A stretch of 64,000 nt of DNA from Escherichia coli (GTDB lineage Bacteria > Pseudomonadota > Gammaproteobacteria > Enterobacterales > Enterobacteriaceae): the NCBI RefSeq assembly GCF_024298765.1, contig NZ_CP101210.1; one strand, given 5' to 3'. Below are positions 6,799 to 35,070 of this stretch, piece after piece. The first letter of the stretch is position 1. The number at the start of each line of letters is the position of its first letter. The position numbers and the translations under genes are program-made. Under the pieces are notes generated by a model. It was not told where the DNA came from. It saw only the letters and a list, made by a program, of their open reading frames with translations, and searched no databases.

Positions 6799-6935
6799 CG
6801 TGTAATGGCTGCATGAAATAAACAATAAAATATAAATAACATTATCAGCCTGCTGACGGCTTGAAGAGAGTCACAGTATCTTGTGCAACATTATTGGAAA
6901 GCGTGAGGGGCGAGGTAGCGAAGCGGAAAAATGTT

Positions 6936-7041
6936 AAAAAAAAGCCCATCGTGGGAGATGGGCAAAGACTACACACAGCAATTCGTTGTTTCACTCAGGG
7001 GATTTCCATGCTTATAAATCAATATGTTGATTTATAACCGT
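6936..7041 (-). ncRNA. rprA: RprA small regulatory RNA (Hfq-dependent activator of rpoS translation), including its intrinsic terminator
   Basis: Reverse complement reads ACGGTTATAAATCAACATATTGATTTATAAGCATGGAAATCCCCTGAGTGAAACAACGAATTGCTGTGTGTAGTCTTTGCCCATCTCCCACGATGGGCTTTTTTT, recognised as rprA; lies between ydiK and ydiL as in K-12. Confidence 0.85.
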
Positions 7042-12479: not shown

Positions 12480-12685
12480 TCCTGACTTAATGCCGCAATT
12501 TTGCCAAATCGACCTGGATTAACCTCCGTCCAGGTTCGATGACCTTCTTAATACTGCTTATCTATCCGCCTGATATTGTTCAAAAATAATACTAATCGCA
12601 GTTTGTGTTAAAACGGCGGGTTAGCTTTATGAGATTATTCTTATCGCCCCTTCAAGAGCTAAGCCACTGAGAGTGCCGGAGATAA

Positions 12686-12750
12686 GCGCCGGATGGGGTA
12701 GAAACCCTTAAGCCTGTGTCGCACAGACTTAAGGGTTTTCTTATTTCTGA
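12686..12750 (+). ncRNA. rydB: Candidate sRNA (position expected for rydB) ending at an intrinsic terminator; boundaries approximate
   Basis: Strong hairpin AAACCCTTAAGCCTGTGTCGCACAGACTTAAGGGTTTT followed by TCTTATTTCT on the + strand, between ydiH and the suf promoter where rydB is mapped in K-12; strand and 5' end not verified. Confidence 0.35.
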
Positions 12751-25355: not shown

Positions 25356-25661
25356 TCAGGCGAGTTTTGCCTGATTGATTTGACTAAGTGGCTCATTGAC
25401 ATCGAAAACTTTGGCGACAACTTCCTCAACGCCGAGATTTTTCAGTCGGGCAGTATGTTTTTCCAGATAGGCAAGGGCGCTTTTTTCATCAGTAAAAAGG
25501 TAGATCCCACCGGCTTCGTGGTTCTTTTCACTTTCTGTCCATACCTTCCACAGAAAACCAGGTTCCTGATTAATCGACTCAGCAAGCGGTTCAAGCTGCT
25601 CAACCATTGCGTCGCCAAATGGGCCATTAAAAGCAAAATGAAGTTGTAACAAAGTTGCCAT
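25356..25661 (-). CDS. ydhR: Putative monooxygenase-like small protein YdhR
   Basis: 101-aa ORF recognised as YdhR. Confidence 0.88.
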
Positions 25662-25768
25662 AGCGATTCTCCTTCTGATAACGCATACGAAGACAGTGTA
25701 AATCTTTTAACGTATTGGATACAGAGAAGAAACAGAGGGAAAAAGGAGAAGACCAGATTAAGAAAATC

Positions 25769-25845
25769 TGGTGCGTCCGAGTGGACTCGAACCACCGACC
25801 CCCACCATGTCAAGGTGGTGCTCTAACCAACTGAGCTACGGACGC
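25769..25845 (-). tRNA. valW: tRNA-Val (anticodon GAC)
   Basis: Reverse complement GCGTCCGTAGCTCAGTTGGTTAGAGCACCACCTTGACATGGTGGGGGTCGGTGGTTCGAGTCCACTCGGACGCACCA has the cloverleaf hallmarks (GTTCGAGTC T-loop, encoded CCA); the valV/valW assignment follows map order. Confidence 0.9.
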
Positions 25846-25849
25846 AGGA

Positions 25850-25926
25850 TGGTGCGTTCAATTGGACTCGAACCAACGACCCCCACCATGTCAAGGTGGT
25901 GCTCTAACCAACTGAGCTATGAACGC
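25850..25926 (-). tRNA. valV: tRNA-Val (anticodon GAC), tandem copy 4 nt from the first
   Basis: Reverse complement GCGTTCATAGCTCAGTTGGTTAGAGCACCACCTTGACATGGTGGGGGTCGTTGGTTCGAGTCCAATTGAACGCACCA. Confidence 0.9.
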
Positions 25927-26233
25927 AACGTTGTAGGTGACAACGGGACGAATATTAGCGGCAGAGTGGGAAGGTGGCAAGAGGCAAAACGTAATTTTCT
26001 GCGCTATTTCGACCGTTTGCAGAGCTTTTAAGCAAATTGGCTATATTTTGTTGATTTGCAAGGGCGATTTTTATTCAGGATCGCATTTACATCAGATACA
26101 ACCCAATAATCCGTGTATCAGAGTTTAAACAGAGTTGTTTGCCACCATCTCAAAATCTGTCGTGGATAAATCCTCCGTAGCCTTTACACTTAGGTAGCAA
26201 TAAAGGCACACAGATGCAGCAAAGGAATAAATC

Positions 26234-27490
26234 ATGGGATCTGATGCGAAAAACTTGATGAGCGACGGGAACGTGCAAATTGTTAAGACCGGCGAGGTCA
26301 TTGGCGCGACGCAACTTACTGAAGGTGAGTTAATTGTTGAAGCTGGCGGAAGAGCCGAAAATACCGTGGTCACGGGGGCTGGCTGGTTGAAAGTGGCAAC
26401 CGGTGGGATCGCCAAATGCACACAGTACGGCAACAATGGCACGCTATCGGTCAGCGACGGTGCCATTGCCACAGATATTGTTCAGTCCGAGGGAGGCGCA
26501 ATTAGTCTCTCTACGCTCGCTACGGTTAATGGCCGCCATCCCGAAGGTGAATTCAGCGTTGATAAAGGTTATGCCTGCGGTTTGTTGCTGGAAAATGGCG
26601 GTAACCTGCGTGTACTGGAAGGACATCGCGCGGAAAAAATTATTCTCGATCAAGAGGGTGGCCTGTTGGTCAATGGGACAACCTCAGCGGTCGTGGTAGA
26701 TGAAGGTGGTGAATTGTTGGTGTATCCAGGTGGGGAAGCCAGCAATTGTGAGATTAATCAGGGCGGCGTTTTTATGCTGGCGGGGAAAGCCAATGATACG
26801 TTGCTTGCTGGTGGCACCATGAATAATCTCGGTGGTGAAGACTCTGACACTATTGTTGAGAATGGAGCCATCTATCGTCTGGGTACGGATGGTCTTCAGC
26901 TCTACAGTTCCGGTAAGACGCAAAACCTGTCCGTTAATGTGGGGGGGCGGGCTGAAGTGCATGCCGGTACGCTGGAAAATGCGGTAATACAAGGTGGGAC
27001 AGTGATCCTGTTGTCACCCACCAGCGCGGACGAAAATTTTGTAGTAGAGGAAGATCGCGCACCGGTTGAACTGACCGGTAGTGTTGCATTACTGGACGGC
27101 GCTTCAATGATTATTGGCTATGGCGCAGATCTGCAACAATCAACGATTACTGTACAGCAGGGCGGTGTGTTGATTCTCGACGGCAGTACGGTAAAAGGTG
27201 ACAGTGTCACTTTCAGTGTTGGTAACATCAATCTCAATGGCGGAAAACTGTGGCTGATCACTGATGCGGCAACGCAGGTGCATCTGAAAGTGAAACGCCT
27301 GCGTGGAGAGGGAGCCATTTGCCTGCAAACCAGTGCGAAAGAAATTTCACCTGACTTCATCAATGTGAAAGGGGAAGTTACTGGTGATATACACGTTGAG
27401 ATAACAGATGCCAGTCGGCAAACTCTGTGTAACGCACTGAAACTACAGCCAGACGAAGACGGGATTGGCGCAACGCTCCAGCCTGCGTAA
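26234..27490 (+). CDS. ydhQ: Autotransporter-adhesin-like passenger-domain protein
   Basis: 418-aa Gly/Thr/Asn-rich ORF recognised as YdhQ. Confidence 0.88.
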   Translation: MGSDAKNLMSDGNVQIVKTGEVIGATQLTEGELIVEAGGRAENTVVTGAGWLKVATGGIAKCTQYGNNGTLSVSDGAIATDIVQSEGGAISLSTLATVNGRHPEGEFSVDKGYACGLLLENGGNLRVLEGHRAEKIILDQEGGLLVNGTTSAVVVDEGGELLVYPGGEASNCEINQGGVFMLAGKANDTLLAGGTMNNLGGEDSDTIVENGAIYRLGTDGLQLYSSGKTQNLSVNVGGRAEVHAGTLENAVIQGGTVILLSPTSADENFVVEEDRAPVELTGSVALLDGASMIIGYGADLQQSTITVQQGGVLILDGSTVKGDSVTFSVGNINLNGGKLWLITDAATQVHLKVKRLRGEGAICLQTSAKEISPDFINVKGEVTGDIHVEITDASRQTLCNALKLQPDEDGIGATLQPA

Positions 27491-34517: not shown

Positions 34518-34561
34518 TCCATTTCACTCCAGACCCTAACTTCAGCTCCTGCAAAATCGCA

Positions 34562-34577
34562 AGGTAAACGTTTGCCT
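34562..34577. promoter_or_regulatory. PurR-box-like palindrome upstream of purR
   Basis: AGGTAAACGTTTGCCT resembles the PurR operator consensus ACGCAAACGTTTGCGT; purR is known to be autoregulated, but the exact operator positions are not verified here. Confidence 0.45.
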
Positions 34578-34815
34578 TTACACACCTTACGCACAACAAA
34601 AGTGTTGCGGTACGCCGGAAAAACGACACGGAGCGTCAGGAAGGGGTCAATGGCCAGTACGCAAATAGTGTAAGCGTGGAATTTTGGCCGATCTTGACGA
34701 AAAGGGGAAGTGGTAAAAACACTTATCATTATAAATGACGGGAGATTTTTTCATCACAGTGTGTAAAAATGCGTAATATCACTTTTTGTGTGGTAATAAA
34801 AAAGGAGAAAACTTG

Positions 34816-34905
34816 ATGAGCACCGACCTTAAATTTTCACTGGTAACAACGATTATCGTCCTCGGTTTGATCGTGGCCGTGGGTTTGACAGCCGCGCTGC
34901 ACTGA
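34816..34905 (+). CDS. ynhF: Small hydrophobic protein YnhF (29 aa)
   Basis: ATG preceded by AAAGGAGAAAACTTG (Shine-Dalgarno); encodes MSTDLKFSLVTTIIVLGLIVAVGLTAALH; below the 60-aa cutoff of the ORF track. Confidence 0.75.
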   Translation: MSTDLKFSLVTTIIVLGLIVAVGLTAALH

Positions 34906-35070
34906 TTTCCTCTCGAGGGAGCGCGTTCTCCCTCGCATCTCCTTCCTGTTTGTTAGCAAAATGGCAAAAGTGTTTTCTCTTTTTGTTATTTTCATTTTTT
35001 TGTGATTGCTGTCATGCTTTCGCCACTTTAATGAATATCGCGTAATGACGCGAAGAGGTGGAGATAAGGC

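Follow-up and report, generated by a model that had tools for sequence, protein, structure and literature searches.

The window, that is, the whole 64,000-nucleotide (64-kb) stretch of Escherichia coli DNA considered here, contains exactly two tRNA genes, both of them tRNA-Val(GAC) genes of 77 nt located on the minus strand (ARAGORN). The preliminary description, made from the letters alone, had placed two 77-nt tRNA-Val(GAC) genes head to tail with a 4-nt spacer, and both the coordinates and the lengths are confirmed by ARAGORN and Rfam. The strand was absent from that description; the strings quoted in it are minus-strand sequence, the first of them belonging to the downstream gene (valW). 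The features of the locus are, in the order of transcription:

25975..25980, minus strand: -35 hexamer TTGCCA of the probable sigma-70 promoter of valVW (consensus scan)
25952..25957, minus strand: -10 hexamer TAATAT, followed by the discriminator TCGTCCC (consensus scan and sequence)
25945..25947, minus strand: C-run with the published start sites, at about -19/-20 relative to valV (K-12 alignment)
25927..25945, minus strand: 5' leader of about 19 nt, removed by RNase P according to the literature (sequence; PMC2190699)
25850..25926, minus strand: valV, the upstream gene, tRNA-Val(GAC) isodecoder Val2B, distinguished by the acceptor 5' strand GCGUUCA and the T stem GUUGG (ARAGORN; Rfam, 70.1 bits; K-12 identity)
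25846..25849, minus strand: valV-valW intergenic spacer of 4 nt, UCCU on the transcribed strand (sequence)
25769..25845, minus strand: valW, the downstream gene, tRNA-Val(GAC) isodecoder Val2A, distinguished by the acceptor 5' strand GCGUCCG and the T stem GGUGG (ARAGORN; Rfam, 69.6 bits; K-12 identity)
25752..25772, minus strand: weak hairpin ACCAGAUUUUCUUAAUCUGGU, which begins in the 3' ACCA of valW and is followed by CUUCUCCUUUUU (terminator-like scan)

Both genes align over their full length to positions 1-71 of the Rfam tRNA model (RF00005, cmscan), with scores of 70.1 bits for valV and 69.6 bits for valW against a gathering score of 29 (E ~1e-13). In each of them, the anticodon gac is found at position 35 (ARAGORN), the nucleotides U8, A14, G18 G19 and U33, which take part in tertiary interactions, are in place, the T loop GGTTCGAGTCC and the 3' ACCA are present together with G53 T54 T55 C56, A58 and C61, and the discriminator A73 is accompanied by an encoded 3' CCA. 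The major identity elements for ValRS are A35 and C36 of the anticodon GAC and the discriminator A73. By their cloverleaf, with an acceptor stem of 7 bp, a D stem of 4 bp and anticodon and T stems of 5 bp each, their conserved nucleotides and their CCA end, valV and valW are both bacterial elongator tRNAs. Minimum free energy (MFE) folding of single sequences recovered the acceptor, D and anticodon arms and drew the T arm differently (z = -2.1); a weak result of this sort is usual for unmodified tRNA sequences, and in view of the decisive evidence from the covariance model and from the covariation described below, the misdrawn T arm does not weigh against the cloverleaf.

Identity with the valV-valW operon of K-12

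The preliminary description had named valV and valW of K-12 as the genes to compare, and the match is complete: valV, valW and the spacer are 100% identical to valV (b1665) and valW (b1666) of K-12 MG1655, and the ydhQ/ydhR context is the same, with ydhQ divergent and ydhR on the same strand as the tRNA genes (RefSeq annotation of a 100%-identical genome and of K-12). In a 481-nt alignment, the window and K-12 agree at every position from the start of valV until more than 100 nt beyond valW, and the sole differences are three SNPs located more than 130 nt upstream and the deletion of 1 nt from the C-run. Accordingly, the window and K-12 are alike in the tRNA genes, the UCCU spacer, the downstream region, the promoter hexamers and the flanking ydhQ and ydhR, and differ in the three upstream SNPs and in the start-site C-run, which reads CCC in the window and CCCC in K-12. 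A 901-nt query around the pair has matches in 5425 of the 5426 complete E. coli genomes, and the RefSeq annotation at the matched loci is always ydhR, two tRNA-Val genes, and ydhQ. The genomes that match at 100% over the 901 nt come mostly from avian or chicken isolates. Two of the 10,887 matching places lie on plasmids, so that a tRNA-Val(GAC)-like segment is carried by at least one E. coli plasmid.

Elsewhere in the window, full-length Rfam matches were obtained for RprA and RydB (6934-7041, minus strand, and 12646-12706, plus strand, respectively) and for STnc550 (34518-34908, plus strand, 396 bits), all of them ordinary enterobacterial small RNAs. These matches are consistent with the region of K-12 at about 1.73-1.79 Mb in reverse orientation, that is, the ydh-ydi region.

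The products of the two genes can be identified as well. The published probe used for the purification of Val2A is complementary to valW and the probe for Val2B is complementary to valV (probe sequences in PMC1851638); since these probes match the two genes, Val2A and Val2B are known cellular tRNAs that have been isolated separately. The E. coli tRNAs that carry acp3U47 include both Val2A and Val2B (PMC6895100). It is next to certain that the feature is the chromosomal valV-valW operon of E. coli; the pair would have arisen by an ancient tandem duplication, with three compensatory replacements in the V copy. Nothing contradicts the identification as the valV-valW operon, a pair that is already known and has been described in detail.

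One match on the opposite strand calls for separate consideration. The segment 25645-25807 of the plus strand, antisense to the 3' half of valW and to the ydhR leader, matches the Rfam family HPnc0260 (RF02194) with 112.1 bits (cmscan). Taken at face value, this would mean that the plus strand encodes an antisense small RNA of the HPnc0260 family and that the locus has a regulatory antisense layer; indeed, the score is well above the gathering score of 59, and the model is covered over its full length (1-156). However, the third of the model that aligns best corresponds to the T arm and the acceptor 3' strand of a tRNA in reverse complement, the remaining alignment is A/U-rich and poorly structured, the family was defined in Helicobacter pylori, and a consensus scan of 25400-26400 found no sigma-70-like promoter on the plus strand. 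An antisense RNA at this place is hence very improbable; the alignment rests on the valW 3' half in reverse complement, and we judged the candidate to be a tRNA-antisense artefact, the match probably stemming from a family that was built on a tRNA-antisense transcript.

Transcription, processing and termination

The processing of the K-12 transcript has been followed by Northern blots and primer extension in mutants (PMC2190699). According to the primer extension data of Mohanty and Kushner, the K-12 valVW promoter is a sigma-70 promoter with a -35 element matching the consensus in 5 of 6 positions and a -10 element matching in 4 of 6 (PMC2190699), and the transcripts begin with a C located either 18 or 19 nt upstream of mature valV (PMC2190699). 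In the window, both hexamers are intact and the TTGCCA-TAATAT spacing is 17 nt (consensus scan), the C-run being shorter by one C; this exact 74-nt promoter/leader allele with CCC is found in just 16 of 5425 complete E. coli genomes. The leader has a predicted 6-bp hairpin, CGUUGU/ACAACG, which ends 2 nt before the RNase P site (ViennaRNA); of the four precursor variants that were folded (see below), only W-V lacks it in its MFE structure.

In K-12, valV and valW make up one dicistronic transcript (PMC2190699), with a 4-nt UCCU spacer (PMC2190699, PMC4176162) that contains no RNase E site (PMC2190699). It is RNase P that separates the two tRNAs, independently of RNase E, by cutting at both mature 5' ends (PMC2190699), and the dependence on RNase P has been extended to all seven valine tRNAs (PMC4176162). 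The trailer is removed by PNPase and RNase II (PMC2190699), and Val2 from valV/valW is aminoacylated in vivo (PMC4176162, Table 3). In the predicted structure of the full-length transcript, the RNase P sites are enclosed in stems, and cotranscriptional processing has been proposed (PMC2190699). By analogy with the published K-12 operon, valV and valW of the window would be transcribed from the single sigma-70 promoter as a dicistronic precursor, in which RNase P would cleave at each mature 5' end and release valV from valW with no need for RNase E. Because the spacer is only UCCU, the RNase P cuts would, at the same time, be the cuts that separate valV from valW. The 3' trailer beyond valW, which would reach into the region of Rho-dependent termination, would be removed by PNPase and RNase II, with exonucleases trimming the last 3' nucleotides down to the encoded CCA, and both tRNAs would then be charged by ValRS and read GUC and GUU.

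The polycistronic leuQ-leuP-leuV and valU-valX-valY-lysV operons of E. coli resemble valVW in that their tRNAs are separated by RNase P and not by RNase E (PMC2190699, PMC4176162). Unlike valV and valW, the copies with the same anticodon in these operons are identical and lie 28-46 nt apart. The valY-lysV spacer is also 4 nt long, but it separates two different tRNAs, which again is not the case with valV-valW.

Termination of the K-12 valVW transcript appears to be Rho-dependent, ydhR is not cotranscribed, and there is no recognisable intrinsic terminator after valW (PMC2190699). The hairpin ACCAGAUUUUCUUAAUCUGGU downstream of valW has eight pairs, three of which are G-C, and a folding energy of -8.8 kcal/mol. 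It was considered as an intrinsic terminator and rejected: the scan found two terminator-like sites versus 1.2 expected by shuffling, and the assignment would conflict with the published Rho-dependent termination. As such sites are about as frequent in shuffled sequence, the hairpin is not called a terminator, and it is probably not an efficient intrinsic one.

Compensatory differences and the age of the duplication

A pairwise alignment of valV and valW shows identity at 71 of 77 positions. The differences are found at sequence positions 5, 7, 51, 65, 67 and 69, which correspond to 5, 7, 50, 64, 66 and 68 in the standard numbering, and they fall into three double changes: pair 5:68 is U-A in valV and C-G in valW, pair 7:66 is A-U in valV and G-C in valW, and pair 50:64 is U-A in valV and G-C in valW. 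All three exchanged pairs are Watson-Crick pairs in valV as well as in valW. No difference is seen in the D arm, the anticodon arm, the variable loop, the T loop, the discriminator or the CCA. The claims that the D and anticodon arms are identical, that the differences lie in the acceptor and T stems, and that the stem changes are compensatory thus hold for each of the six differences. The organization of the six differences as three compensated pairs and the identity with K-12 are far beyond chance.

Two near-identical copies between which six substitutions have accumulated might, in principle, be taken for a functional gene and a decaying, non-functional pseudogene, with the other copy alone supplying tRNA-Val(GAC); apart from this bare pattern, nothing speaks for such a reading. 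Every one of the substitutions is compensated, the sequences of both valV and valW remain unchanged across at least 15 genus labels, and each gene scores about 70 bits on the tRNA model. Furthermore, Val2A and Val2B have been purified as separate cellular tRNAs (PMC1851638), and acp3U47 is listed for both (PMC6895100). The probability that either copy is a pseudogene is thus vanishingly small, and this reading is effectively refuted already.

The antiquity of the tandem pair was assessed by a scan of the genomes of 100,044 species for two Val(GAC) anticodon arms located 62-92 nt apart, which yielded at least 120 loci; the scan covered loci with a tandem pair of such arms, and Salmonella was not in the sample. 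Of the 120 loci listed, 119 contain Val(GAC) genes according to ARAGORN, with one to five copies per locus. An exact valV immediately followed by an exact valW was found in at least 29 loci from at least 15 genus labels of the Enterobacteriaceae, with spacers of 3-17 nt; among the matches listed, the genera with this V-then-W arrangement include Escherichia, Citrobacter, Enterobacter, Kosakonia, Cedecea, Leclercia and Lelliottia, and also Raoultella, Shimwellia, Siccibacter, Mangrovibacter, Phytobacter, Pseudescherichia and Superficieibacter. The V-W pair dates back at least to the origin of the family Enterobacteriaceae.

The exact valW sequence extends further, to at least 28 genus labels, including Serratia, Budvicia and Erwiniaceae, and W-like copies dominate in Vibrionales and Alteromonadales among the matches listed. 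Given that the valW type is so widespread, the W form is probably ancestral and the valV type, judging from this distribution, probably derived. Erwiniaceae, Aeromonas and Zobellella possess V-like copies that share U5-A68 but differ at 7:66 and 50:64, where the pairs are again compensated. In Klebsiella, Trabulsiella, Pluralibacter and Kluyvera, there is a third Val(GAC) copy in the middle. These three-copy arrays (V, V', W) are similar to the pair in the window in that they occupy the same position downstream of mdtK, start with V and end with W, and have short spacers (4-8 nt); they differ by the extra middle copy, which shows one further compensatory pair compared to V (6:67, C-G to U-A), the window having two copies only. 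The arrays of Serratia, Edwardsiella and Cedecea sulfonylureivorans (W-W or W-W-W) likewise are tandem arrays at the mdtK locus with the W sequence, but their copies are mutually identical, are separated by 18-20 nt as opposed to 4 nt here, and do not include a V-type copy.

The genomic neighborhood tells a similar story. By tblastn, the Val(GAC) array is located just downstream of mdtK (norM) in Enterobacterales, Aeromonadales, Alteromonadales and Vibrionales, with examples beyond Enterobacterales in Aeromonas, Zobellella, Shewanella, Ferrimonas, Pseudoalteromonas, Photobacterium and Salinivibrio. For most Enterobacterales, as well as for Aeromonas, Shewanella, Pseudoalteromonas and Photobacterium, some 150-400 nt separate the array from mdtK/norM. 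Escherichia differs in that ydhQ (26234-27490, plus strand), a gene with AIDA repeats, is inserted, on the opposite strand, between mdtK and valV, and among the loci fetched it is only in Escherichia that ydhR lies downstream of valW (tblastn). The mdtK synteny across orders implies that the tandem state at this locus either is very old or has recurred there.

Covariation provides a further line of evidence. Among the matches listed, there are 63 distinct 77-nt homologues, in which the cloverleaf is 99.8% paired over 1323 cells, and 14 of the 21 cloverleaf pairs show changes on both sides; in the controls, the observed score was reached by none of 500 shuffles, and pairing with slid partners dropped to 29-49%. 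The columns that distinguish V from W, given here in sequence positions, contain the following pairs in the 63 sequences, among the matches listed: 5:69, CG 46, UA 15 and GC 2; 7:67, GC 41, UA 14 and AU 8; 51:65, GC 49, UA 8, AU 5 and CG 1. Hence, at the three V/W-distinguishing pairs, all 63 sequences have standard pairs only, which supports an old duplication with compensatory changes. The old duplication that had been proposed from the two genes of the window is supported by the V-W pair in at least 15 Enterobacteriaceae genus labels and by the array beside mdtK in four orders. On these comparative data, the pair would have originated from an ancient tandem duplication, after which valV would have undergone three compensatory replacements (5:68, 7:66 and 50:64) that left the cloverleaf intact.

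Spacing and acceptor-stem identity

With no more than 4 nt between the two genes, it is possible to envisage that the stem differences were selected rather than acquired by neutral drift, the divergence at 5:68 and 7:66 serving to prevent a junction hairpin; on balance, we consider such selection unlikely. The trouble that identical stems would cause, according to this proposal, is that the upstream 3' and the downstream 5' acceptor strands would pair with each other in a junction hairpin, giving a domain-swapped precursor in which the RNase P site is hidden, and this part of the argument, too, appears doubtful.

The predictions for artificial precursors are striking. In ViennaRNA partition-function folds of leader, tRNA, UCCU and tRNA, the real V-W precursor forms the valV acceptor stem with P = 0.89 and the junction hairpin with P = 0.011, whereas in artificial V-V and W-W precursors the junction hairpin has P = 0.97 and the native stems are at about zero. 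The energies of the isolated junction hairpin are -5.2 kcal/mol for V-W, -9.8 kcal/mol for V-V and -13.0 kcal/mol for W-W. The location of the RNase P sites inside predicted stems of the full-length transcript, mentioned above, was noted by the authors of PMC2190699 themselves and points in the same direction.

The distribution of natural spacers also fits the proposal. Among the 176 Val(GAC) junctions in the matches listed, identical acceptor stems are found in 0 of 52 junctions with spacers of up to 6 nt, 1 of 36 at 7-12 nt, 19 of 42 at 13-20 nt and 8 of 46 at more than 20 nt, so that only one of the 88 junctions of up to 12 nt, among the matches listed, has identical stems, in line with a relationship between stem divergence and spacing. 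The same trend is seen in the 13 tRNA clusters of K-12, where all 17 junctions with identical stems have spacers of 28-209 nt, all 14 junctions of up to 23 nt join different acceptor stems, and valV-valW is the only short-spacer pair with the same anticodon. In the junctions examined (for Val(GAC), among the matches listed), no tandem tRNA genes with identical acceptor stems are closer than 10 nt. A metagenome-assembled genome (MAG) of Aeromonas contains two tRNA-Asn(GTT) genes 2 nt apart; their acceptor stems are non-identical, which fits the spacing pattern.

However, several observations speak against a selective origin of the stem differences. Nearly all natural homotypic arrays with 10-30-nt spacers are themselves predicted to be domain-swapped (P 0.8-0.99, mostly 0.94-0.99, with two at 0.51 and 0.34), and these arrays, from Serratia, Edwardsiella, Shewanella and Pseudoalteromonas, evidently work, which indicates that the predicted misfolding is independent of spacer length and can be tolerated. 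Similarly, the natural junctions of 4-5 nt that differ in one pair only (Klebsiella, Trabulsiella, Pluralibacter) have a predicted junction hairpin with P 0.86-0.93. Cotranscriptional folding and cleavage could render the equilibrium structure irrelevant. Finally, the short-spacer junctions represent few independent lineages, and the spacing pattern is confounded by age, since old pairs may diverge and also lose spacer. The simple thermodynamic explanation, namely, that misfolding is avoided by stem divergence, was therefore rejected: for all its appeal in the case of V-V and W-W, it failed the control with natural homotypic arrays. Taken as a whole, the notion that the stem divergence of valV and valW allows the 4-nt spacing, with identical stems being barred below about 10 nt by a junction hairpin that blocks RNase P, is a long shot; if it were true, tightly packed tRNA genes with the same anticodon would need different stems.

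As a textbook case of an E. coli tRNA operon, the valV-valW pair has little significance in itself. Its products Val2A and Val2B were reportedly sequenced decades ago, and the way in which its transcript is processed is known. The present analysis confirms what had been read from the letters, down to the compensatory character of all the differences, and establishes on which strand the genes lie and which of them is valV and which valW. The one point that looks further ahead is the empirical observation that, in the junctions examined, identical acceptor stems do not occur where the spacer is very short. In a literature search, no earlier mention was found of a rule linking spacing and identity in tandem tRNA genes. 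Should the spacing pattern prove to be genome-wide, it would be a design principle of modest reach, applicable to polycistronic tRNA operons as well as to synthetic tRNA arrays.
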